64,000 bases of DNA from Candidatus Gottesmanbacteria bacterium (GCA_023245335.1 JAHFKK010000001.1:81918-145917); one strand, 5' to 3'; counted from the first letter of the stretch, positions 31,003 through 49,203 are shown. The notes: generated by a model not told the origin, from the sequence alone. Made by a program: numbers and translations.

Positions 31003-31341
31003 TCAAGGAGTACGCTTAGGCGGCTTGGGGAGCTTATCATTCAGGAGCGCTTCTACCTCTTCCAGCGCGCCTTTCACTTCATCATGGATTTCTTTCGGAG
31101 TTGCGGGATTTTGCAGTGCGCCTTCGATAAGCTCAAGATACCGATTGATCGTCACCTTCTCGGGATTCCCCGTGACATCTTCGAGAATATATTGAGGCAC
31201 ATGGGAGACGATAATGGGCCAAACGAGGTGATGGAGTCCCGCGCTTATCCGGGCATAAATATCTGCTTTTTCCGTATCACGAAGCGGAGACTCAGATATC
31301 TTTGTCACAATTCTTGTCAAAATGGCATCGATGTCGTCCAT
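31003..31341 (-). CDS. Member of a conserved ~105-aa small-protein family (4 copies in the window). This is the dispersed copy.
   Basis: MDDIDAILTRIVTKISESPLRDTEKADIYARISAGLHHLVWPIIV... aligns with the array copies at 54066, 54929 and 55813 (pattern M.DKL.A[IL][IV]TRIE.S.L.D..K..LYTTI..GLQ.T[VI]WP). Its start lies 8 nt after the stop of the glycine-zipper gene. Confidence 0.6.
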   Translation of the reverse strand: MDDIDAILTRIVTKISESPLRDTEKADIYARISAGLHHLVWPIIVSHVPQYILEDVTGNPEKVTINRYLELIEGALQNPATPKEIHDEVKGALEEVEALLNDKLPKPPKRTP

Positions 31342-36492: not shown

Positions 36493-36630
36493 TCCTTGAG
36501 TCCCCCGGCCTCGACCTATCTTCCAAGTTCCTTGCGAAACAGGTATTGTCAGCGCTAACATGTTTCACTTCCCTGTTCGGAATGGGAAAGGGTGGTGCCA
36601 TGTCGCTTAGGAGACCGAAAGGCTCAAGGA
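36493..36630 (-). rRNA. rrf: 5S rRNA.
   Basis: The reverse complement contains ...GCACCACCCTTTCCCATTCCGAACAGGGAAGTGAAACATGTTAGCGC..., matching conserved 5S helices (CCGAAC...GTGAAAC). The ends TCCTTGAG/CTCAAGGA pair as helix I. The exact ends are approximate. Confidence 0.8.
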
Positions 36631-37046
36631 TACGAACAAAATTTGTTCGCACATATCTTTTGTAGTACGTAATTGCCTCATAAGGGGGAACTTCCCTACC
36701 TTCTCGTGGTATTCCGCTTAAAAGCGGAAATTCAGTCTGAACAATCAGACATCCTTTGTTCCCCACAACTTCGACCGATTAGTACGAGTAAGCTAAGCGC
36801 CTCACAGCGTGTACACTCCTCGCCTATGTACGTAGTCATCTACTACGGGTCTATAACGATTTTTCATCTTGGGGCGGGCTTGGCGCTTGAGATGCTTTCA
36901 GCGCTTATCCCAACCGGATCTAGCTACCCTGCGATGCCGGCACGAATGCGCGACAACAGGCACACCAGGGATCCGTCCTTCTAGGTCCTCTCGTACTGTA
37001 GAAAGTCCCCCTCAAAAATCAAACGCCCACACAGGATAGAGACCGA

Positions 37047-37429
37047 CAAATTTGTTAATCTGTACATCGCTGTACAGTTCGGACTATATCTTTCCGCCCA
37101 AGGCGGATCTGACATGTAGTCTCTGAGGGTTCCCACGACAACGTCGGGGCCTTCCCTGCTGATTGTCTGGCACGTTATACGTGCCTTTACCGCGTTTAAC
37201 GCGGGGCACCATAAAACGATCAATGTTACATTTTCACTACAAAACTGTAGTAGCAACATATACTGCCAGAGTTTCCAGCAAATAGTCAGATTTATCTCCA
37301 CGATGCACTGTGTGCATCGGGATTGTTTTCTTCTTCTATAACAGTCAATTATGAATTCTCGAAGTGGTTACAAAACGTCTGAAAACAAGACAGCTCATTA
37401 TGACGGGATCTCAATCCACGCCAAGGTCT
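37047..37429 (-). mobile_element. Group I intron of about 383 nt with no ORF, inserted in 23S at the E. coli L2593-equivalent site (GACAGU|UCGGUC).
   Basis: The exon sequence is interrupted exactly between conserved GACAGT and TCGGTC, and the exon 1 side ends in U. The insert ends with G (omega-G) and carries a group I catalytic core: cagAGACTAcatgtcagatccgccttgggcggaaagataTAGTCcgaac (P7 5' strand, P8, P7 3' strand) plus GGGAAGGCC (P4/P6-like). Confidence 0.7.
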
Positions 37430-38085
37430 ACTGTCTTACGACGTTCTGAACCCAGCTCGCGTACCCTTTTAACCGGCGAACAGCCGGACCCTTGGGAGCT
37501 TCTCCACCCCCAGGATAGGATGAGCCGACATCGAGGTGCCAAACCGCCTCGTCGCTATGGACGCTCGGAAGCGATCAGCCTGTTATCCCCGGAGTAGCTT
37601 TTATCCGTTAAGCCCGCTCCCTCCCACGAGGGATGCGAGGATCACTAACACCTACTTTCGTATCTGCTCGACCTGTCCGTCTCGCAGTTAAGCTGGCTTG
37701 CCGCGTTTGCACGACACGTCCTGGTTTCCATTCAGGATTAGCCAACCTTTGTACGCCTCCGTTACATTTTTGGAGGCAACCTCCCCAGTTAAACTGCCCG
37801 TCTGACAGTGTCCTGTTCCGGGATTTTTATGCCGGAATAAGTAAGATTTCATCATTTCGAAGAGAGGTATTCCATTGTTGCCCGAAGGCTCCCTCCTATA
37901 CTCGACAGTCAAAATAATGTCTTCAGTGCCAAATTACAGTAAAGCTTCACGGGGTCTTTTTGTCCATGTGTGGGTAGGCCGCATCTTCACAGCCATTTCA
38001 ATTTCGCCGGGTAATGGTTCAAGACAGTTGCTATGTCATTCTGCCTTTCGTGCGGGTCGGAACTTGCCCGACAAGGAATTTCGCT

Positions 38086-38368
38086 CATCAAATAGTTGTG
38101 TTACCTTTATGTCGCCATAAAGATCAGACTATATCTTTCCGCCCAAGGCGGATCGCACGTCTAGTCGTTGAGGGTTTCCCCGACGCACGTTGCGTCGTGG
38201 ATCTTCCCTGCTGATTGACTCCGCTGACTGATTGTTACCTTGCGGTACAGTCAGATACACCGAGTTGTTCCAGCATATAGTGCAATTTTTCTGATTACCC
38301 ACTTTCCTTCTGCACGATGAGTATCAGAGAGGTTTGACTACCTCACTATGGCAACGAAAATATTCTTC
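38086..38368 (-). mobile_element. Second group I intron of about 283 nt with no ORF, inserted in 23S at the L1931-equivalent site (CUA.GGU|AGCGAAAUUCC).
   Basis: The conserved helix 69-71 sequence is split. Exon 1 ends ...AACTGTTCTATGGT and exon 2 resumes AGCGAAATTCCTTGTCGGG. The intron ends in G and carries the same core as intron 1 (caACGACTAgacgtgcgatccgccttgggcggaaagataTAGTCtgatc), followed by a P9-like hairpin CTTTATGgcgaCATAAAG. Boundaries are accurate to about 3 nt. Confidence 0.6.
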
Positions 38369-39835
38369 ACCATAGAACAGTTATAGTTACTGCTGCCGTT
38401 CACCGGAGCTTAAAAAGCTAGCTTCCAACTTTCGAAGGTCACCAACCATTTTTAACTTACCGGCACTGGGCAGGCGTCAGCCCCTATACGTTGCCTTTCG
38501 GCTTCGCAGAGACCTGTGTTTTAGTTAAACAGTTGCATAGCATCATTTACTGTGACCTCGCTTACGCGAGGCAGGGCATCTCCAATATGTTACGCCCAGC
38601 TTTTGTTGCCGAGTTCCTTGAACCATGATCACCCGCTTGTCTTGGTACTCTAATACCAGCGCACCAGTGTCGGTTTGCGGTACGGACAAAAATATGTTCC
38701 CCAACGAGGCTTTTCTTGGAAGCGAAACTATGTGCATTGCCCGCAGCTTGCGCTTTGGACTTCCTGTCACTCCTCAAGTTAAACATGAAAACGGATTTGC
38801 CAATTCTCACTACTTTGGAGCTTCGTGGCTTTTCAACCAGCACACACATTCCCCTTCGTTACCCCTTTAGGTCTTAATCAACATACTTTCGGTACAGGAA
38901 TATCAACCTGTCATACATCGAGCTACGCCCACAAAAAGCGGGCCTCGCCTTAGATCCGACTCACCCGAAGTCGACGAACGTTGCTTCGGAAACCTTGCGC
39001 ATTCGACAATAAGGATTCTCACCTTAAAACGCTACTCATGCCGGCATTCGCACTTCTATCCGCTCCACACCGGTTTCCACCGTATGCTTCACTGCAAATA
39101 GAACGCTCCCCTACCACGTAAACCAAAATAAATTTTAGATTACATCTCTGTCTTCGGCGCTTTGCTTGAGCCTCGATCATTTTTGGCGCCGCAGTTTTCA
39201 TCCAGTGAGCTGTTACGCTATCTTTAAAAGGTGGCTGCTTCTAAGCCAACTTCCTGGGTGTCTTAAAACCGCGACTTCCTTAACCACTTAGCAAAGAACT
39301 TAGAGGCCTTAGACGAAAATCTGGGATGTTTCCCTTTAGCCACACGAGCTTAGCCCCGCATGACTGACTGCCTGGATAACGGTAACTGTATTCGGAGTTT
39401 CATAGAAAAATCTCGATTTCTCTTGACATTTCTTTGAGTGCTCTACCCCAGTACCACATAACCAGACGCTATACCTAAATATATTTCGGGGAGAACCAGC
39501 TATCTCCGGGTTCGATAGGCATATTACCCCTAACCACAAGTCATCTCACAGATTTGTAACTCTGACGAGTTCGGGCCTCCTGTCTGATTTCTCAGACACT
39601 CACCCTGCTCATGGTTAGCTCACCCGGTTTCGGGTCTATTACGACGTACTGTATTGTCGCCCTATTCGGACTTGGTTTCCCTGCGCCTCCCCCCTCTTCG
39701 GGGTTAAGCTAATGCACGTCGAAATAACTCACCGGCTCATTCTTCAATAGGCACGCGATCATCCGCCTTGCGGCAGACTCTCGCTGTTTGTTAGTCGACA
39801 ATTTCAGATACTATTTCACTCCCCTTCCGGGGTGT

Positions 39836-39873
<38 letters not shown>

Positions 39874-40715
39874 GCAGTTGCGTGTTTAGTCTTGGAGGAT
39901 GGTTCCCCCAGCTTCCCACATGGCCTTCGTGCCACATGGTACTTGGGAACAGACTAGAGGTGTTTTGAGTTTCGGATACGAGGTTTTCACTCTCTTTGAC
40001 TACCTATTCCGAGGTATTCTCCTACTCTCAACACTCCCATATTGTCTGCCCCACAACCCCCAGATAAATCTGGGTTTAGACTTTTCCGCGTTCGCTCGCC
40101 GCTACTGACGGAATCTCATTCGATTTCTTTTCCTCACCCTACTTAGATGTTTCAGTTCAGGTGGTGCCCCTCACACTGTTACCTCAATCTTTCGACTGAC
40201 TTCGCAGTGCAATGACCATAAATGGTCGGATTGCTCCATTCGGAAACCGCCGGATCGCGGGATATTGACTCCTCCCCGGCGAATATCGCTGCCAATTGCG
40301 TCCTTCTTCGGCACAACTGCCCAAGGCATCCATTGTCGACTTGTAGCGTTGCGGAGAACAAAAGATATCTCAATCCGCCTCCCCGGCGGAAAGAGATCTT
40401 TGTTTCCCCTTAAAAACGAAATAGCCACGATAAGAAGGAAAAATTCCCCCTTACGCGGCAACTACCATACTACAAATAAATATCTGTGTAACAGGAATTG
40501 CACCTGCACTACACAAATGTCATTAAATTATTAATGAGCGAATTCGCGCTCTTGTCGCGAGAATACGCGCCTATTATATATAAGGTATGTATTCCCGATA
40601 CAAGAACCGTGTTCAATCTCTATGGCGTCCCGCCTTCATCAGGTTTGTGGCGCCGCGACTACGCGGCATCCACATCAGTACGGCTTGCTCGTCTACGCAC
40701 AACGCCTACTGTCTG

Positions 40716-40788
40716 TGGACCCGGGCGGAGTCGGACCGCCTACCTCTTCATTGCAAATGAAGCGTTCAACCAGGTAAACTTCGGGCCC
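40716..40788 (-). tRNA. tRNA-Ala, anticodon UGC, upstream of 23S.
   Basis: The reverse complement reads GGGCCCGAAGTTTACCTGGTTGAACGCTTCATTTGCAATGAAGAGGTAGGCGGTCCGACTCCGCCCGGGTCCA. It has G3:U70, an anticodon loop TTTGCAA and a T-arm GGCGG-TCCGACT-CCGCC. Confidence 0.75.
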
Positions 40789-40855: not shown

Positions 40856-40892
40856 GCAAAAAATAACCCCGCCTTTATGCGGGGTTTGGACT
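40856..40892 (-). terminator. Rho-independent terminator ending the 41089..57597 minus-strand gene cluster, positioned before the tRNA-Ala/23S unit.
   Basis: The minus strand reads aaaCCCCGCataaagGCGGGGttattttttgcac. Confidence 0.6.
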
Positions 40893-41088: not shown

Positions 41089-41949
41089 TTAAATTACTCG
41101 TACCATCGCTGCTAACAATTCCTCTGCCTCCATTTTTCCTGCACTTCTACTCTCGGCTATAAACACTCCCAAAGCCATATAAATCATCTTGCCTGTTGCC
41201 GTGTGGAGGGGCGATCTCTCCTGCAGCATCGCCAACCGCGATGTTGCTTGTTCAAACAAGGCGCCAGCAATAGGTATTTGAGATATGATGCGTATATAGC
41301 TTTCAAGGGTTGCCCCATTTACATAATCGTTCGTTTCCTTCCACCCTGTTTGGATTGTATCAGCCCCCTTATCCGCTACCTCATGGATAAAGCCGCGTTT
41401 CCCGGATAAATTCTCCGCGAACTTGTTGCCAAGTGCAGTCGCGTATTTATCGTTCATAACATCAATTAATTTTCTCATTGCACGGTTTCGTGCGTTGAAT
41501 CTTAACTGATCAGATGTCAAATGAAGTTTGTTAATAATATTTTGTTTAGGCTCTTCTTTGTCTAGTGTGACCGGGAATAACCACTCAACTGGCTTACTCG
41601 TGACATAATCAAATGCGGTAAAAAGAGTAATAATCTTAACGAGTGCACCCACCCGCTCCAATCGCTCTTCTACTCCACCAATATCCTTCTCACCACGGAA
41701 TTCATAGTCGATCTTTCTGATATGCGTGCCGGCATTTTTGATGAACTTCCCGGGGTCCGTGATCCACTCGTACGAAGCATCCCGGAATGCATCCCACTTA
41801 ATGGGCTTTTTTTCCTTGTCGTATGGAGTATATTCCCCCATCTGAAGGACTTTTTGCCAGTGCTTTTGATTCGCCTCAGTCAAGTCTTTTTTCCACGAAG
41901 CGACTGCGTCAGTTGAGGCCGAAAATCTTGGTGCTTCTTTGGTTGTCAT
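41089..41949 (-). CDS. Hypothetical protein, 286 aa. Member of a three-copy paralog family in this locus.
   Basis: Its C-terminal region (NDYVNGATLESYIRIISQIPIAGALFEQ) aligns with 42039 (DFINPVNVEAAFRLVEEIPVVGEGVHW) and 44678 (RFINSMVNPSTIEAGFRTLSAIPIGGHIVEN). It has no TM segment and no signal peptide. Confidence 0.6.
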   Translation of the reverse strand: MTTKEAPRFSASTDAVASWKKDLTEANQKHWQKVLQMGEYTPYDKEKKPIKWDAFRDASYEWITDPGKFIKNAGTHIRKIDYEFRGEKDIGGVEERLERVGALVKIITLFTAFDYVTSKPVEWLFPVTLDKEEPKQNIINKLHLTSDQLRFNARNRAMRKLIDVMNDKYATALGNKFAENLSGKRGFIHEVADKGADTIQTGWKETNDYVNGATLESYIRIISQIPIAGALFEQATSRLAMLQERSPLHTATGKMIYMALGVFIAESRSAGKMEAEELLAAMVRVI

Positions 41950-42038
41950 ACAAAAACGACGCCACTAGGCATCAAGCAGTATTGTACCATACAAATGAGC
42001 CTATAGCAATATAAGGGATGTCGCGTAATATCGGACTA

Positions 42039-42953
42039 TTAGACCTGTTTTACGTTTCTGCCGATGTGGAATCCGAGGATGCCTTTCGAGGCGAGCGTAT
42101 TCGTCCATTTACCCACGGTAGCCTCCAACGCAACATCGGATTTCTCACGCAGCCAATGGACGCCCTCCCCGACCACGGGAATCTCTTCCACTAGACGGAA
42201 GGCAGCCTCAACGTTCACGGGGTTTATGAAATCCATAGTTTTATACGCACCCTTCAATTTGAACACATGTCTATAGGTATTTGGTATATTTTTATCTTTA
42301 CCCCATTTGATTTTGAACAGATCGTCAGCAACCCATTTACCATTAATGGTTGGGTGGGGCAATTTCTTCCCAATAAGCACATCATCAAAAAATACCTGGC
42401 TGATTATGTTTCCCCAATCAGCAAGAAAAGCTGAAGTTTCAGACACATACTTAGCCTCGTTTATACCCGTCATCATGCGTACCCAGGCATTGGCTGCTGT
42501 GGCGTATAGATTATCTGACGCCCATTCTTCCGCAAAATCAAAGGCGCCTTGCAAGCCTTGTTCCCGTTTCGCTGCATTCGTCAACTTCTCTTTCTGCTCT
42601 TGCCAATTTTTAGCCAAATGAGCAGCGTTCTTGGCAATGTCTTGATCGTAAGCAGGTTGGTCATATGTATTAGCAGTGTCCTTCATCGCATCAACACGTT
42701 TTTCAAGCTTATCCCGGAATAGATTCGTCACAAGATTACCTTCCACTAAATCAGCAGCAGTTGCGCCCAAAAGGATAGAAAAGTTTAGACCGGCACGTTT
42801 CATACCGTCACCAGGCTGAGATTGAGATTTGAATTCAGGAAGAAGGAGCCTCTGGGAGCCCCGTTGTGATGGAGAAAATTCTCTGGTTTCTGCGCTCATA
42901 TTTTCTGAAAAACCAAACGATCTACGCTTGGTTAAAAAAGGAGTATACCACAC
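42039..42953 (-). CDS. Hypothetical protein, 304 aa, paralog of 41089 and 44678.
   Basis: Shares the [FY]IN....T.EA.FR....IP..G motif block. Soluble, and Trp-rich in its C-terminal half. Confidence 0.6.
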   Translation of the reverse strand: MWYTPFLTKRRSFGFSENMSAETREFSPSQRGSQRLLLPEFKSQSQPGDGMKRAGLNFSILLGATAADLVEGNLVTNLFRDKLEKRVDAMKDTANTYDQPAYDQDIAKNAAHLAKNWQEQKEKLTNAAKREQGLQGAFDFAEEWASDNLYATAANAWVRMMTGINEAKYVSETSAFLADWGNIISQVFFDDVLIGKKLPHPTINGKWVADDLFKIKWGKDKNIPNTYRHVFKLKGAYKTMDFINPVNVEAAFRLVEEIPVVGEGVHWLREKSDVALEATVGKWTNTLASKGILGFHIGRNVKQV

Positions 42954-42994
42954 AGCTAGTCCTATAGCAAGTATCCGGCATCACACAATTTTGG

Positions 42995-43288
42995 CTAGTT
43001 TGCAGGTTTGAGAAGTGCTGTACCCATGAGGACTTCATCTATTGCTTCCTGATTCTTGTTCCGCTCGTCTTCAGGCATGTCTTTGAGTATGGCAGCAAGT
43101 CTCTCGCGGATCTCGGCACCCCGCTTCTCCATAGCCTTTCCGTACTCGCGGTCAAACGCGTCGATCCCTTCCTCGAGCTTGCGGACGTCCTCGTCACTCG
43201 CTCCTTCGAGCTTCACGAGGAGCTCGACCTTCTGCGGATCGGAAAAAAGCCTGGTTTTTTGTATCTTTCTACGCACCTTTGAGATCAT
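42995..43288 (-). CDS. Small acidic helical protein, 97 aa, a candidate cognate/immunity-type partner.
   Basis: Highly charged (EDVRKLEEGIDAFDREYGKAMEKRGAEIRERL...). It overlaps the upstream gene's end by 20 nt and is followed 41 nt later by the next large gene. Confidence 0.5.
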   Translation of the reverse strand: MISKVRRKIQKTRLFSDPQKVELLVKLEGASDEDVRKLEEGIDAFDREYGKAMEKRGAEIRERLAAILKDMPEDERNKNQEAIDEVLMGTALLKPAN

Positions 43289-44336
43289 ATTCCTCCAACC
43301 TCTTCAGGTCATCGTCCTGTTTGGACTGACCGTAGTACACTTTGTTCCCGGCCCACTTCTTCTCACCTTCCTGCCGCCGGTTATCAGTCCGCGGACGCCA
43401 ATCTTCTTTTTTGGGCATAGGCACGCTTTTCCCCGCCAATCCGCCCTTTTCGCGCCTCAATTTATGTACTTCTTTAAAGTTTTTTATGAGTGTCGAGATC
43501 CCAGTCCCCACCATGTCGACTCCGAGCTGCGTCACCGGATTGGAAACGTCAAACACATTGAGAAAAAACTTCTCGGTATCCCCAATGTTCGGAGTCGAAA
43601 AACCAGTTACTCTCGTTTTCTCCAAGTCTTGGATCTGCTTGTCTAATCCTAGTATTTTGTCATTCAATTTTTGAGGATATACGAATTTATTTTGACCTCT
43701 GTCAAAATGACCACCCCTGCTCGCCTGGTCAAGTTTCTCTCCAAGCGCTTCCTGTTGTTTGCCGATCATCTTGTTTGTGCTAGTAGCGGCTTCGAACTGC
43801 ATTTGAGCCGGAAGCGAAGGGAGGGTAGCTGCCGCTACTATGTTTGTGACCAGTGAGCCGACGAGGTGTTGTGACTTGGCTTTCTCCAAAAGCGGTTGAG
43901 ATCGAAATGCCAGGAAGTTATAAAAAATGGCCATCGTGAGGTCCTGCGTGCTTTCCTTGATGAGGTAATACAACCGGGCATTGAGGTCACTCTTCCCGGC
44001 AAATTCGTTCATCTTCCCCGCCATACCCTCGCCGAATCTTGTCTTGTCGTAATAGGGTATTTCCCCTTGCCAGATTTTCTCCCAGACGAAATCCATAGAT
44101 TTTTCTAGTCCCACCCCTACCCCGGTAGATACAAATCCTTTGGCGGTACGCATGAGCGCTGTGTCGCCTTCAAATTTATCTTTCGCCATTTTGTTAGCGG
44201 TATCTATATCCCGGATGGTGTCACCTACTGCCGTACCCAACTTGTCTAATAGTGACTTTTCCTTTTCGGGCTTCATGTCCGGCACGCGTAGCGGCATGTC
44301 TTTCAGAGATGGCTTCGGTGTTTCTACGGATGGCAT
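43269..44336 (-). CDS. Hypothetical protein, 355 aa, with a K/E/R-rich C-terminus.
   Basis: Intact ORF. Its weak C-terminal motif (FLNVFDVSNPVTQLGVDMVGTGIS) is reminiscent of the paralog family block. Confidence 0.55.
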   Translation of the reverse strand: MPSVETPKPSLKDMPLRVPDMKPEKEKSLLDKLGTAVGDTIRDIDTANKMAKDKFEGDTALMRTAKGFVSTGVGVGLEKSMDFVWEKIWQGEIPYYDKTRFGEGMAGKMNEFAGKSDLNARLYYLIKESTQDLTMAIFYNFLAFRSQPLLEKAKSQHLVGSLVTNIVAAATLPSLPAQMQFEAATSTNKMIGKQQEALGEKLDQASRGGHFDRGQNKFVYPQKLNDKILGLDKQIQDLEKTRVTGFSTPNIGDTEKFFLNVFDVSNPVTQLGVDMVGTGISTLIKNFKEVHKLRREKGGLAGKSVPMPKKEDWRPRTDNRRQEGEKKWAGNKVYYGQSKQDDDLKRLEEYDLKGA

Positions 44337-44370
44337 ACAGTATCAGGGTACTTGGTTTATCCGGCTGCGG

Positions 44371-44685
44371 TCAAGGTGTATGGACCGGAAAAAGATTTTT
44401 CTCTTGCTTCCTGACTTTGGCAATTAACTGCTTTTTTTCGTCCTCGGGTATAGTTTCCGTCGCTACAGTTTGTTCAAACTTATTATATGCATGCACGAGG
44501 TGTTTCCGCAGGACGTACTCCCGATGTTTTGATCGCTCGTCAAACGTCGAAAGGATCCTCACAATGCGCTCACGATACTCTTCCGGCAACAATTCCGGCT
44601 TGTCCAATAATTCCCGCTTTTGTATCGCGGTGAGTAGCCGGCTTTGTATAACGGCTCTAGTAAAATTATCACGTAGGTTATTCAT
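44371..44685 (-). CDS. Small charged helical protein, 104 aa.
   Basis: Overlaps the end of the upstream paralog (44678..45478) by 8 nt, which suggests translational coupling. Confidence 0.5.
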   Translation of the reverse strand: MNNLRDNFTRAVIQSRLLTAIQKRELLDKPELLPEEYRERIVRILSTFDERSKHREYVLRKHLVHAYNKFEQTVATETIPEDEKKQLIAKVRKQEKNLFPVHTP

Positions 44686-45478
44686 GAGGTTTTACGTATT
44701 TCGCCTTTGCAGCAAGCATCGTTGCCGCCAGGTCAAATCCATAGGGAAATAAACCTTTTTCTTTCAGTAAAAATTGATTTGCCGCCGCATAGACGTTTTC
44801 AACAATGTGTCCGCCGATAGGTATTGCCGACAGCGTACGGAATCCGGCTTCAATCGTACTCGGGTTTACCATAGAATTAATAAACCGATGCATGCGTTTC
44901 GCCTCGGGAGCGAGGGTAAATGATATCGCGATATTCCCCACCTTAGACAGAGTGTCGGAAAGCGGCGACACGAACTTCACGTCACCTCTATTAGTCGCCT
45001 GCTGCACCGATAAATCCGAAAATTTACCGATAAGCGAATCCGTTATCATCTCCCACCCGGCCTTTAAAGCCTCCCGATTTCCTTGATTCTCGAGCGAAAC
45101 ATACTGTTTATTCTTCCAGGTAAACAAACTCCCCTCTTTTTTAAGAAGTCGTGATGTAAGTTCATCCCCGCCAAAGTCCATAAGTGCCGAGGCACCGCCC
45201 AAGACGCTAAACAGAAGTATCCGTTCGAGCTTGTGCGGGATCTCGCGCCGTTTTTCCCAAATATATTTCTTCTCCGTGAGTGTTTGTGCAGTGAGAAGCG
45301 CAATCTCAGTTTCCGCATTCCGTGCATCTATCCGCTCTTCCAGCGCATGGGGGGCGACGATATCAAACACTTCCTGCATGTGTTTGTGCTGTAGCGTATC
45401 GGGCTTGGTGAATGTCGGTTTCGGCGCCTCCGCCGAACCGACAAACTGATAAATGGTCCCTTCTGCCATAGATATCAT
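44678..45478 (-). CDS. Hypothetical protein, 266 aa, paralog of 41089 and 42039.
   Basis: Carries the shared C-terminal motif. Its start abuts the stop of the 45478..45732 gene. Confidence 0.6.
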   Translation of the reverse strand: MISMAEGTIYQFVGSAEAPKPTFTKPDTLQHKHMQEVFDIVAPHALEERIDARNAETEIALLTAQTLTEKKYIWEKRREIPHKLERILLFSVLGGASALMDFGGDELTSRLLKKEGSLFTWKNKQYVSLENQGNREALKAGWEMITDSLIGKFSDLSVQQATNRGDVKFVSPLSDTLSKVGNIAISFTLAPEAKRMHRFINSMVNPSTIEAGFRTLSAIPIGGHIVENVYAAANQFLLKEKGLFPYGFDLAATMLAAKAKYVKPHE

Positions 45479-45732
45479 TAACTCGGTTTCCCCGTCCCGA
45501 CATATACCGTATCCTGTCCCTTTACGAGCTCTTCGAGCATCGCATCAAACGAATCAGACAATTCCTTTTTGTGACCTAATACAAACTGCCGCTCTGCCGC
45601 AAGATATTTACCGATTACATCTACCTGTTGATCCGTCAAAGCCGGCACACGATCGATAAGAGTGAGTTTGTCATCATCCGTAAGAAGCACGCTTGCTTCT
45701 ATAAGGGTCACTAAAGCTACTTTTTTGTTCAT
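45478..45732 (-). CDS. Small acidic protein of about 84 aa, taking the start as the internal ATG (MNKKVALVTLIEAS...).
   Basis: The track's longer ORF (to 45822) would overlap the upstream gene by 94 nt. The internal ATG at 45732 instead overlaps the upstream stop as ATGA. Confidence 0.45.
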   Translation of the reverse strand: MNKKVALVTLIEASVLLTDDDKLTLIDRVPALTDQQVDVIGKYLAAERQFVLGHKKELSDSFDAMLEELVKGQDTVYVGTGKPS

Positions 45733-46898
45733 ACAGCTGGTGTCATCGCTTTCTGCGGCAAAAACACTCCCGCCGCTTTCTCTACCTTCTTTTCTTCCAG
45801 ATGGTCGACACGCTGATTCCAATGCCGTTTCACGATCTCTATCGCTTTTTTGGATGTTTCATAACTCATAGTGAAATCTTCTACCCGATTGTGAAGATAT
45901 TGCCAGACGGGCGGCACGAGTCCCGCCCACCACTGACCTCCAAAACCCTCCAGTACGTACGACGCAGTCGAAACCAACGGAGGGACATCAGGGATCGGGT
46001 TAATAATTGGCCCTAGGTTCTCCCATAATAAATGTATCCCGACGAGTTTCGCTCCCCGCTTGAACTTATCACCCTTCGTAAATACTGGTGCTTCTCCGTT
46101 GGCGGTGATCCTGATCAATTCTGCTTCGGTCACCGGCACATTATGTTTTGCATATTCTGACTTATTCTTCAGGTATTTCTCTTTAAATTCTGTATCTGTA
46201 TGGATATTCGCAGCCTTTCGTACTGTTCTGGATGCCCAGCCCTCTTTTTTGGTAGGGTCCGGTGTATTATTGAGCGCATCTAAAGCTTTGTTCCGATACG
46301 GTGTGTATTGCTCTCGCGTAGCTGCCTGTTTTTCTGCGGCAGTAAAATACGCCGTTTCCTTTGCTTGCATTTGTTCACGCGCTTTATCTACACCCGTTCC
46401 CCTTTTAACGGCTTTATTATATTTTTCAATGGAACTCGCATACTCGGTCTGCGCTTTAACTTCTGCCTTCATGTCCTGTGCAAGCGGTACTTCTGCTTTT
46501 GCGGCCTTTTCCACCGCCGACACGGTAGTTGCCTCCTTTGCGGCAATTTCTGCCTGTGCGGCTAGCTGAGGACTTTTTCCAACGAGTGCCTCTGCGGCAT
46601 TAACCGGCTGTGCAGCTATTCTGGCTGTATTCCACTCACTTACCTTATTGATAAATGGAACTATCCCTAATGCCACCTTGGCGTCCTTAAACAGAATGCT
46701 GAGCCTGTGAAGTGTCGTCTCTTTCCCCAGCCTCCCAAGCTCAGCAAACATACTGAGTTGTTCGGTGGGTTGCGCTATCTGGGCTGCGGGATCCCGCATC
46801 TCTGTTTCAATGGCGGTCGTGGCATCCTTTATCGTAGCTCCGAGCTCCGGCGCAATGACAGTTTGTTCTTTTTGCGGAATTTCTGACTGCTCGTCCAT
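45729..46898 (-). CDS. Hypothetical protein, 389 aa, with an Ala/Lys/Glu-rich central coiled-coil-like region.
   Basis: Intact ORF located 38 nt downstream of the last ABC gene. No TM segment. Confidence 0.55.
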   Translation of the reverse strand: MDEQSEIPQKEQTVIAPELGATIKDATTAIETEMRDPAAQIAQPTEQLSMFAELGRLGKETTLHRLSILFKDAKVALGIVPFINKVSEWNTARIAAQPVNAAEALVGKSPQLAAQAEIAAKEATTVSAVEKAAKAEVPLAQDMKAEVKAQTEYASSIEKYNKAVKRGTGVDKAREQMQAKETAYFTAAEKQAATREQYTPYRNKALDALNNTPDPTKKEGWASRTVRKAANIHTDTEFKEKYLKNKSEYAKHNVPVTEAELIRITANGEAPVFTKGDKFKRGAKLVGIHLLWENLGPIINPIPDVPPLVSTASYVLEGFGGQWWAGLVPPVWQYLHNRVEDFTMSYETSKKAIEIVKRHWNQRVDHLEEKKVEKAAGVFLPQKAMTPAV

Positions 46899-46938
46899 AG
46901 CTTCAGTATGGGTTCTTTATCCCATTTTGACAAGGTTA

Positions 46939-49176
46939 TTATGATGGTTTCGCCATTGCCTCCAAGACTTGATGATCTCCGAGCTTCATCATCTCAGATG
47001 ATTTATTCAGCTTTTCGAAATCGACGACCTTTTCGGCGATCTTTTCAAAAACCGGATCGTGCGTAATCGCAACCACCGTCATGTCCGGACGGGTTTTCCT
47101 GAGTTCCTGGATAATCGCAAGCACCTGCTGTGCGGACGCCTGGTCCAGATTAGCAGTCGGTTCATCCAAAAATAGTATCTTGGGATCTTTCAGTAACGCG
47201 CGGGCAATCCCTATTCTCCGCAGTTCCCCACCCGAAAAGTGTTTGACCGCCGTATCCAGCCGTGGCGCAAGATGATCTAGCTTCAGATCTTTCAGAAGTA
47301 CTTGCACTTTATCATCTGATATATCCTTTTTGGTCCATAACAGCAAGTTTTCCCGAAGTGTCATCCCATCCATCACTTGCGGCGATTGGTTTGCGTATCC
47401 TATGGCGTTATAAAGTGAATCGTCCCCATACCGCTTCACTTCACTTACGGGAACCCCTCCGTATGTAATACCCCCGCCTTGCGGTGCGTACAGACCGATC
47501 ATCTCGCGGAATAAGGTGCTTTTCCCGATCCCAGACGGTCCTTTGACCGTCACAAACGATCCCTGAGGAATATCAAGGGAAACGTTATGCAAAATATCCT
47601 TAAACGAAACGTTTGAGACTTTGATGTCGTAGTTCGGGAGCTTGGACGCAGCGATTCGCTTCTGTTCCCGGGGACCATTAGGCATCTCCTGTACGTCATA
47701 CGGCCCAAGCAAATCATTCATGCGCTTGATATCCTCAAGTGCCGGGATCACCTGATACGTGTAAAGGTTCGTGAGCTGCATAATGCTGGACTGCAGGTCC
47801 TGCCCAACCATCTTGGCATCGGCAATCATGTTGTACTTACCGTACATATTGAGTAACACATCTCCGACGGGTATTCTGGGATCCTTTCGTATATTTTTAT
47901 AGAGATTAACCCCTTCTATAGCAAAAGGTGCATTATCAATAAGATCCAAAACCGTTTTTACCCACCGCGTACTCGTTTTGTGTTTGCGGAGACCTCCGGA
48001 GAGTATAGTATCCCGGTCTTCGAGCGTCGTCGCCAGGCGCTTCATGCTCTCCTGCGCTCCCCCGGACGTACGTACTGTCTCGAGGTTCCCCAATGTCGCT
48101 GCGAGCCTGGTATTTGCTAAATTCCACATCTCCCGCTCCTGTGTTGTTATGTTGCGATAATCTTTTGCCTGTACCCACGCGTTCGTCCCGATAAGAATCG
48201 ATTTGGCCCAAGCGGCATACGATAGTTTTTTATCGACGATGCCTTGCCGCTGCAAGATACTACCGATATTGACAAGAAGCGGCAGCATATCCGCATACGT
48301 TGTAACGACGAGATTTGCCGTGGACGCCTTGCCCCGATCAATGATGTTGATCATTTCTTCAACCGGCTTGTCATGTAAAAATTCGAAGTCGCGCATGAGG
48401 ATGGAGCGCGTAATACGCGTATTTATCGACTGCTGCAACTTTTGCTGTTCCTTAAAAAAAAGGTTGTCTGCGTACCGACCAGTGACGTTCTCAACCAAAT
48501 ATGAAAGCGGCTGGCTCCAAATGGGCCATGTCGCATCACGAAGAACGGTCATTGCTTTTTTGTTAGTCACCAAATCTTTTACGAAGGACTTTTTCAAAAG
48601 ATCTCCTCCGGTCGTGGCTCCTGCTTCCTTAACCGCGTCGACGACGCCGTCGAGCATACGGAAAATGAGCTGACCATCTTTGTTTGCCCGAACGACGTAT
48701 CCGTCCAAAATGTTGCGCGCCGCAATGTTCCCCGAGTAAATCCCCGACATAAGCCACCACTTCCCTGACCCAAGCTGATACGTTTGGAAAATATCCCCGA
48801 CTGCCTTCCAATACTCATCCAAATCTATTGCCGCCGGTTCATGTGTTTCAACCGGCCGTTCCTGTTTCGGTTTTTCCCCACTTGGAGATGCGGGCGGCGA
48901 CTCACTCATACGGGAAACGGCAGACTGCACATCGGCCGGCGTCACGTCTATACCTTCCTTGTGCAGATCACCAGCCACCGCATTCACCACTTCTTTCACG
49001 TCTTTGGGAGATGCTGAGGCTTCGGATGATTTTTGGGCAAGTTTTGCAGAGGCGACCACCGTATCCGGTGAAAGGACAACCGGCTTCAGAGACTCCACTG
49101 TGCGTGGGGCTTCCGGGCTAATAAGCGGTGCTGCGATAGGCCTCTCAGCAGTCATACTCCTTATTGTAGCGCACAA
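46939..49176 (-). CDS. ABC transporter, fused divergent TMD plus ATPase (type I exporter-like half transporter), paralog 1 of 3.
   Basis: The C-terminal NBD carries Walker A GPSGIGKSTL, the signature FSGGELRRIGIARALL, Walker B ILFLDEPTANLD and the H-loop AITHD. The N-terminal domain of about 480 aa has six weak hydrophobic helices and the family motif ILMRDFEFLHDK. Confidence 0.8.
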   Translation of the reverse strand: MCATIRSMTAERPIAAPLISPEAPRTVESLKPVVLSPDTVVASAKLAQKSSEASASPKDVKEVVNAVAGDLHKEGIDVTPADVQSAVSRMSESPPASPSGEKPKQERPVETHEPAAIDLDEYWKAVGDIFQTYQLGSGKWWLMSGIYSGNIAARNILDGYVVRANKDGQLIFRMLDGVVDAVKEAGATTGGDLLKKSFVKDLVTNKKAMTVLRDATWPIWSQPLSYLVENVTGRYADNLFFKEQQKLQQSINTRITRSILMRDFEFLHDKPVEEMINIIDRGKASTANLVVTTYADMLPLLVNIGSILQRQGIVDKKLSYAAWAKSILIGTNAWVQAKDYRNITTQEREMWNLANTRLAATLGNLETVRTSGGAQESMKRLATTLEDRDTILSGGLRKHKTSTRWVKTVLDLIDNAPFAIEGVNLYKNIRKDPRIPVGDVLLNMYGKYNMIADAKMVGQDLQSSIMQLTNLYTYQVIPALEDIKRMNDLLGPYDVQEMPNGPREQKRIAASKLPNYDIKVSNVSFKDILHNVSLDIPQGSFVTVKGPSGIGKSTLFREMIGLYAPQGGGITYGGVPVSEVKRYGDDSLYNAIGYANQSPQVMDGMTLRENLLLWTKKDISDDKVQVLLKDLKLDHLAPRLDTAVKHFSGGELRRIGIARALLKDPKILFLDEPTANLDQASAQQVLAIIQELRKTRPDMTVVAITHDPVFEKIAEKVVDFEKLNKSSEMMKLGDHQVLEAMAKPS

Positions 49177-49203
49177 CTCCCCGAAGTGGGACTGGTGGAA
49201 ATA

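Follow-up and report, generated by a model that had tools for sequence, protein, structure and literature searches.

Translationally coupled large and small orphan genes beside an ABC ATPase in a Patescibacteria island: a tentative client–chaperone reading

What is made by a block of eight genes that alternates large with small hypothetical proteins, joins them by overlapping stop and start codons, and matches no described family? We considered this question for a 64,000-nt stretch of DNA from Candidatus Gottesmanbacteria (GCA_023245335.1 JAHFKK010000001.1:81918-145917; this whole stretch is referred to below as the window). Its source is a Patescibacteria (candidate phyla radiation [CPR]) genome, and proteins identical to those of the window are encoded on a 1.218-Mb contig. 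An earlier reading of the window (hereafter, the original prediction) had described eight open reading frames (ORFs) in which large and small genes alternate with tight translational coupling, and had likened the small proteins to immunity or chaperone proteins. The ORFs, their order and coordinates, the alternation, and the coupling were all borne out, with the eight genes lying on the minus strand as follows (L and S denote two paralogous families; pI, isoelectric point).

45729–46898, minus strand: g45729, 389 aa, the first large protein of the block
45478–45732, minus strand: g45478 (S1), 84 aa, S family, with a conserved C-terminal tail V[YF]VGTGKP
44678–45478, minus strand: g44678 (L1), 266 aa, L-family paralog 1 (predicted all-alpha)
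44371–44685, minus strand: g44371 (S2), 104 aa, S family, basic (pI 9.6)
43269–44336, minus strand: g43269, 355 aa, large protein with a highly charged C-terminal tail containing KVY[VY]GKS
42995–43288, minus strand: g42995 (S3), 97 aa, S family
42039–42953, minus strand: g42039 (L2), L-family paralog 2, longest ORF 304 aa
41089–41949, minus strand: g41089 (L3), 286 aa, L-family paralog 3

Profile–profile comparison with hhalign, based on family alignments of 12–14 orthologs each, gave the new finding that S1, S2, and S3 form one paralogous family (S, approximately 85–105 aa). S3 matched S1 with a probability (P) of 94.8% and an E-value of 5e-8, the comparisons of S3 with S2 and of S2 with S1 gave P = 83.8% and P = 66.9%, respectively, and the proteins align in register over an N-terminal block, I..[ST].L[LF][ST]...K..L[LI]...[FY][DE]. 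Each follows a large protein (g45729, g44678, and g43269, respectively), and these three large proteins are mutually unrelated, an arrangement that fits secretion-chaperone families and not cognate immunity proteins. The description of the small proteins as acidic held for two of the three (pI values of 4.8, 9.6, and 5.6), g44371 being basic. When the S-family profile was searched against the PDB, the top match was apolipoprotein A-I (E-value 0.0019), a low-complexity helical match that is probably compositional; a match of g44371 to HTH_40 (E-value 5.5e−4) was sub-threshold noise. In some related loci (L003, 3154–4136; L004, 313–1264; L007; L008; and L018), a fourth large-then-small pair occurs upstream of the ATP-binding cassette (ABC) genes adjoining the block, with a protein of 221–234 aa followed by an overlapping S-family member of 93–94 aa; the island in the window does not contain this pair.

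The second family had been proposed originally on the basis of a shared C-terminal motif. This motif, [FY]IN..T.EA.FR....IP.[IV].G, matched none of the three proteins literally (0/3), and a relaxed block, [FYV][IV]N..[TNS][ILV]E[AS].[FI]R....IP..G, was present. The family itself (L; g44678, g42039, and g41089) was recovered by hhalign: g42039 matched g44678 with P = 97.9% (E-value 6e−13), g41089 matched g44678 with P = 96.7% (E-value 4e−10, 195 columns), and g41089 matched g42039 with P = 82.7%, so that in two of these three comparisons the homology extends far past the motif. The residues conserved across the superfamily, D...RG.D.G, a buried hydrophobic helix with D at its end, NP..[IV]E...R, and P..G, are interpretable as helix caps, turns, and salt bridges of the i/i+4 type; taken alone, they do not point to an active site. 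NP.T motifs had suggested that g45729 and g43269 might also be related to the L family; hhalign gave this no support, and it detected no kinship between these two proteins. With its conserved N terminus (MDE.[SP]EIPQKE) and variable A/E/K-rich middle, g45729 has no detectable kinship to the other families.

Among the large proteins, an all-alpha structure was modeled for the L family only. A model of g44678 from 10 sequences was poor (predicted local distance difference test score [pLDDT] of 51), while the AlphaFold2 model of g41089 from a 59-sequence alignment was all-alpha, with 12 helices (pLDDT 83.5; predicted template-modeling score [pTM] 0.76). Foldseek searches with the latter gave no fold match in the PDB (best E-value 1.4, TM score ≤0.2) and no match in BFVD (best E-value 0.41), suggesting that, at this sensitivity, the predicted L fold is without a counterpart among solved or viral structures. 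The best match in a PDB sequence-profile search with the L family was farnesyl pyrophosphate synthase (E-value 0.16). By hydropathy, the five large proteins have no strong hydrophobic segment, and their N termini are polar, which speaks against a Sec signal peptide. Locus L029 (8000–12161) contains a distant, solitary L-family gene (P0039), whose neighbors encode a sortase-domain protein of 575 aa and a CLIPPER-domain protein and include ORFs of 1261–1449 aa, with no S-family gene nearby; this neighborhood hints at a cell-surface context.

The predicted overlaps were confirmed in the sequence: ATGA joins g45729 and S1 (45729–45732), the 8 nt ATGAATAA are common to g44678 and S2 (44678–44685), and 20 nt are common to g43269 and S3 (43269–43288), with GGAGGA just upstream of the S3 ATG. 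A further junction, TAATG, was found at 45478 between S1 and g44678. Although the longest ORF of the S1 gene would encode 114 aa (from TTG at 45822), all orthologs start at the equivalent of ATG 45732 (MNKK[VI]AL), so the originally assigned length of 84 aa stands. Translation of g42039 probably starts at ATG 42899 (286 aa) and not at GTG 42953: its orthologs start with the equivalent M..ET.., and the GTG coincides with part of a promoter-like site. No small partner accompanies L2 or L3. The intergenic regions before g42039 (42942–42970) and g41089 (41981–42009) carry on the minus strand a common promoter-like element, TTGCTATAGG-N7-TGT[GA]TGGTA[TC]A, an extended −10 element with TG. In addition, a hairpin at 41957–41974 (minus strand) with a T-run ends exactly at the ATG of g41089, and could serve either to terminate g42039 transcripts or to control translation.

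The block is the distal, invariant half of an island of approximately 15 kb (about 41089–56166), on the side of the tRNA-Ala and 23S rRNA genes. Gene order was the same in 13 related loci that span the whole block and represent about 10 species, and runs abc46939-type ABC gene, g45729, S1, L1, S2, g43269, S3, L2, L3. Each of the eight genes, the small ones included, has a single-copy ortholog in every one of these loci, which derive from metagenome-assembled genomes labeled “Candidatus Gottesmanbacteria” or “Patescibacteria group.” Where a related locus is long enough, the block is followed by tRNA-Ala/23S rRNA genes or by intron-type LAGLIDADG ORFs, and short contigs of more distant relatives (L012, L013, and L028) keep the large-then-small alternation. 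Between loci L003 and L011, which represent two related species, the proportion of nonsynonymous differences (pN) was 0.04–0.19 and that of synonymous differences (pS) 0.46–0.74 for the eight genes (0.05–0.19 versus 0.59–0.74 for the small ORFs), and dN/dS was 0.02–0.16 where dS could be estimated, indicating purifying selection; for g45478, the synonymous sites were saturated (pN 0.053 versus pS 0.74). Conservation in all related loci, together with pN far below pS, excludes the possibility that the small ORFs are non-coding. Single-copy, syntenic orthologs at a fixed site under such strong purifying selection are also unlike polymorphic toxin cassettes. The cluster proteins nevertheless evolve faster than their neighbors, with identities of 27–66% compared with 77–83% for the flanking gdh and ribosomal protein S1 genes, while remaining syntenic. 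Fast divergence is common for envelope and host-interface proteins. The g44678 ortholog is split into three ORFs in locus L014, reflecting either pseudogenization or indel errors in long reads.

The island is vertically inherited and specific to one clade of Patescibacteria, and its protein families are extremely rare. A search with g44678 alone against 5.8 billion clustered proteins retrieved 10 proteins, and the profile of its family retrieved 38 proteins at an E-value of ≤1e−3 from 1.84 billion representatives; the L superfamily and S-family profiles retrieved 60 and 37 clusters, respectively. Matches were found in 6 of the 185,579 GTDB species searched and at 11 loci among 241 million metagenome records. 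All family matches were unnamed or annotated as “hypothetical protein,” and carried no Pfam domain. Consistent with the original statement that the cluster matches no known family, scans of the eight proteins against Pfam, NCBIfam, PHROGs, and PADLOC gave nothing above threshold, and the same scans of the small and medium proteins farther upstream in the island gave only sub-threshold noise. No counterpart of the module is known in sequence, nor, for the one modeled member of the L family, in fold. The surprise is tempered by the frequency of orphan clusters in CPR genomes. Nothing on this cluster was found in the literature on Gottesmanbacteria or on Patescibacteria (ABC, effector, and episymbiont topics). 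We also considered a phage, defense, or mobile origin of the block and rejected it, given that there were no PHROG or PADLOC matches, that the chromosomal position is fixed, and that no integrase is present.

The constant neighbor of the block is an ABC ATPase, encoded approximately 40 nt upstream of g45729 on the same strand, and two paralogs of it lie beyond.

46939–49176, minus strand: abc46939-type ABCB-like ATPase, 738–745 aa, immediately preceding g45729 in all related loci
49204–51183, minus strand: abc49204, second ABC paralog, 659 aa, presence varying between species
51265–53406, minus strand: abc51265, third ABC paralog, 713 aa, six weakly hydrophobic segments with the spacing of a type IV exporter transmembrane domain (TMD)

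Relatives have zero to two further ABC paralogs besides the constant one, and a variable number of small-plus-medium gene pairs farther upstream. The three paralogs share 37–45% identity with one another. All have a C-terminal nucleotide-binding domain (NBD; ABC_tran E-value ~1e−30) in which the Walker A motif (GPSG[IA]GK[ST]), the signature (FSGGE), the Walker B motif with the catalytic E ([IV]LFLDEP), and the H-loop (..[IV]TH) are intact. They are most similar to exporter-type ABC proteins, namely CydCD and PrtD in NCBIfam and ABCB1/4 in the PDB; the PrtD model aligns over positions 180–524, and a conserved RTV..GG region of the N-terminal domain aligns with ABCB1. The N-terminal domain alone had no match in a phmmer search of the PDB.

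A short motif, V[YF][VLIY]G, occurs in the polar terminal tails of three unrelated cluster proteins (orthologs in L003–L022). It is conserved at the C terminus of S1 (about 45478–45510) in 14/14 orthologs, in g43269 (residues 333–336, about 43330–43340) in 10/13, and at the N terminus of g44678 in 9/14, compared with a background of 0.23 occurrences per 1000 aa in the ORFs of the window. The motif may be a common docking or targeting peptide.

Taken together, we tentatively read the S proteins as dedicated chaperones or adaptors, and the large proteins as clients that an ABC ATPase exports or assembles at the envelope, and assign this reading a probability of roughly 0.38. Overlapping stop and start codons would ensure that each S protein is made 1:1 with the large protein encoded just upstream, to which it would then bind in a dedicated way, as chaperone or adaptor. 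At the expense of ATP, the neighboring ABCB-type ATPase(s) would export the large proteins or bring about their assembly at the cell envelope or the interface with the host, and the V[YF][VLY]G peptides in the tails of S1, the g44678-type proteins, and the g43269-type proteins may serve as docking signals. This reading is suggested by the occurrence of one S family beside unrelated large proteins, as seen for dedicated export chaperones, and by the invariable adjacency of an exporter-type ABC ATPase. It is also in keeping with the polar N termini of the large proteins and their lack of transmembrane (TM) helices by hydropathy, with the divergence of the cluster proteins beyond that of their housekeeping neighbors, with the terminal tail motif conserved in three unrelated proteins, and with the position of the solitary distant L gene beside a sortase and giant proteins. 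The partner or chaperone role originally suggested for the small proteins remains the most plausible, while the immunity role is unsupported.

Several observations weigh against the client–chaperone reading. L2 and L3, the partnerless paralogs, seemingly have promoters of their own, and the solitary L homolog of locus L029 has no ABC gene within 10 kb. PF00664 (ABC_membrane) matched 4 of 17 N-terminal domains of the ABC proteins, with a best E-value of 3.5e−5 and all matches below the gathering score, in register (profile positions 70–212), which suggests a weak homology to exporter TMDs; the top PDB profile match of the N-terminal domain was the ABCB6 TMD with an E-value of only 0.2. Four of five abc46939-type orthologs had no segment with a Kyte–Doolittle (KD) value of ≥1.5 or a Hessa sum of ≤6, and the fifth (L021) had one marginal segment (Hessa sum 5.8). 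The KD maximum of abc46939 was 1.47, with no convincing TM helix, while abc49204 had one marginal hydrophobic segment and abc51265 had six weak ones (KD 1.0–1.6). KD and Hessa are crude scales, but control membrane proteins in the window had 8–13 segments with KD values of 1.8–2.8, and this internal control makes the contrast real. Therefore, the always-adjacent ABC protein may not be a membrane exporter at all. Furthermore, we infer both the binding of large to small proteins and the export of any component indirectly. A more specific form of the client–chaperone reading, in which a de-hydrophobized ABCB-derived ATPase, helical clients of new fold, S chaperones, and VYVG docking make up a hitherto undescribed, clade-specific export or assembly apparatus, a host-interface or secretion machine of a new kind in episymbionts, is unlikely in our estimation.

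The logic of the block resembles that of several known systems. As in the chaperone–substrate pairs of type III secretion systems (T3SSs) and flagella (CesT/SycE class I; FlgN, FliS, and FliT), small partners that are homologous to one another stand beside each of several unrelated, helical clients without a Sec signal, and an ATPase is encoded at the same locus; that homologous small partners lie beside unrelated clients is well established for T3SS class I chaperones. The S proteins fit these chaperones in size and adjacency, but they have no Pfam match, and one of them is basic (pI 4.8, 5.6, and 9.6). Moreover, Pfam and NCBIfam scans linked none of the sequences to a T3SS or flagellar family, no export-gate genes are present, and the ATPase is an ABC protein, not of the F1 type of FliI/InvC. 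Like the pairs of type VII systems (EsxA/B, PE-PPE, and LXG-Lap1/Lap2), the island co-encodes proteins of ~100 aa with larger helical ones in repeated paralogous pairs, its upstream half has the small-then-larger order of PE-PPE, and its short terminal motifs could act as signals in the manner of YxxxD/E. In contrast, Pfam and NCBIfam scans found no WXG100, PE, PPE, or LXG domain in the eight proteins or the upstream small proteins, and the three ABC proteins are the only ATPases of the island in the 64-kb window, with no FtsK/SpoIIIE-type EccC/EssC ATPase. By these comparisons, no island component appears homologous to type III, flagellar, or type VII systems, and the likeness would be one of logic only. 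ABCB-type exporters of the type IV fold (PrtD/HlyB and PCAT) have a C-terminal NBD with intact motifs, as here, and the N-terminal domain is weakly in register with ABC_membrane. They differ in having six TM helices per half-transporter, whereas the TMD-equivalent helices here are strongly de-hydrophobized (0–1 marginal segments); in addition, a C39 peptidase domain is missing, the putative clients carry neither RTX repeats nor a double-glycine leader, and up to three paralogous half-transporters stand in tandem. Finally, tripartite alpha-helical pore-forming toxins of the ClyA superfamily (Hbl/Nhe, AhlABC, and XaxAB/PaxB) likewise comprise several paralogous all-alpha proteins of ~300–390 aa in one operon, but the elongated ClyA/Hbl-like helical bundle with a hydrophobic head was not found here.

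The chief competitor of the client–chaperone reading, itself doubtful, is a machine in which nothing is secreted: L, S, and the remaining helical proteins would join the ABC proteins in a stable complex, cytoplasmic or peripheral to the membrane, acting for example in remodeling, scaffolding, or loading. The hydrophobicity anomaly of the ABC proteins keeps this explanation alive, with abc46939-type proteins lacking segments above the TM thresholds in all but the one marginal case, and the ABC may then derive from an ABC exporter and have become soluble, or bound to the membrane only peripherally. The island has no evident membrane channel or fusion protein; fixed gene content under purifying selection is as expected for the subunits of one complex, and translational coupling fits stoichiometric assembly. 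The closeness of the NBD to those of exporter-type ABC proteins (CydCD, PrtD, and ABCB1/4) speaks for export instead, as do the six weakly hydrophobic segments with exporter spacing retained by abc51265, the single TM-like segment in each of the upstream 167–187-aa partner proteins, and the much faster evolution of the cluster proteins relative to housekeeping neighbors.

Handling of lipids or other hydrophobic ligands, in which amphipathic helical carriers would be loaded or unloaded by an ABCB-type, flippase-like ATPase for lipid scavenging, appears improbable. Lipid auxotrophy is regarded as general in Patescibacteria, and a presumed inability of this bacterium to make its own lipids would suit such a function, as would the long A/E/K-rich helices of g45729 and the presence of the phosphatidylcholine translocator ABCB4 and of ABCB1 among the best full-length PDB matches of the ABC. 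The apolipoprotein A-I match of the S family could be counted here too, but it is low-complexity and helical, and the similarity of the ABC resides in the generic NBD. Moreover, g41089 is modeled as a compact bundle of 12 helices (pTM 0.76) and not as an extended apolipoprotein-like belt, and the model has no structural match to lipid-binding folds.

Least credible, and very improbable, is that the large proteins are toxins or effectors of the polymorphic type and the small downstream proteins their immunity proteins: large genes followed by small overlapping genes, as also in type II toxin–antitoxin modules, two acidic small proteins, and the orphan status of all cluster proteins speak for it, but one of the small proteins is basic, all three are mutual paralogs beside unrelated large proteins, L2 and L3 lack such a partner, strict single-copy orthology at a fixed locus (dN/dS 0.02–0.16) shows no cassette variation, and no LXG, Rhs/YD, PAAR, or CdiA-type N-terminal trafficking domain was found by Pfam scan (E-value ≤1). 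Remote-homology and structural checks (Pfam, NCBIfam, PHROGs, PADLOC, PDB profiles, and Foldseek on g41089) revealed no toxin domain or fold in the large proteins, be it nuclease, deaminase, ADP-ribosyltransferase, or pore-former; the slant of that prediction toward toxins and immunity was thus not upheld, given the absence of a toxin fold, the S paralogy, the partnerless L2 and L3, and the strict synteny.

The island takes up approximately 1.2% of a genome of ~1.2 Mb, and none of the libraries and collections searched contained the families of the module. In the current view, Patescibacteria live attached to other microbes, and to our knowledge almost nothing is known, outside Saccharibacteria, of the proteins that mediate this attachment. 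If the client–chaperone–ABC reading is true, the block would define a novel mode of protein transport or assembly and offer a concrete candidate, open to testing, for how an uncultured lineage interacts with its hosts. Should the products instead form a soluble complex, the descent of a water-soluble domain from the TMD of an ABC exporter would in itself interest those who study ABC transporters. The block is a good experimental target on account of its strict synteny, its two internally paralogous families, its odd ABC partner, and a new, confidently predicted fold.

The island as a whole is bounded by gdhA (56269–57597) and by a terminator-like hairpin on the tRNA-Ala side. The features at its two ends are as follows.

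53491–56166, minus strand: upstream part of the island, three pairs of a small S' protein followed by a 167–187-aa protein
55813–56166, 54929–55240, and 54066–54377, minus strand: S' family members of the island (103–117 aa)
55247–55810, 54429–54932, and 53491–54045, minus strand: 167–187-aa partners of S', with one weakly to moderately hydrophobic TM-like segment each
40865–40886, minus strand: strong terminator-like hairpin (8-bp stem, 6 GC, T-run), ~200 nt downstream of g41089

The S' family has four copies on the minus strand of the window, the fourth (31003–31341) lying ~22 kb off and adjoining the ribosomal protein S1 gene; a copy in locus L010 (16579–16896) is placed like this fourth one. 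Identity between S' proteins of different species reaches 89%. A relationship between S' and S was suspected from the common motif S.L[ST]..[QE]K..L; hhalign detected nothing. In two contigs from Hainich groundwater, toxin–antitoxin genes have been inserted inside the island (L014, 3091–3610, and L015, 6413–7068; ParE/Phd, and PIN with an 85-aa partner). The terminator-like hairpin probably marks the end of the island transcripts, before the tRNA-Ala and 23S rRNA genes. These genes belong to an rRNA operon directly downstream of the block (36503–40788, minus strand; tRNA-Ala(UGC)-23S-5S), with no linked 16S rRNA gene. The 23S rRNA gene of the window contains two group I introns (37060–37364 and 38105–38335), and LAGLIDADG ORFs occur at the equivalent place in the relatives L004 and L014.

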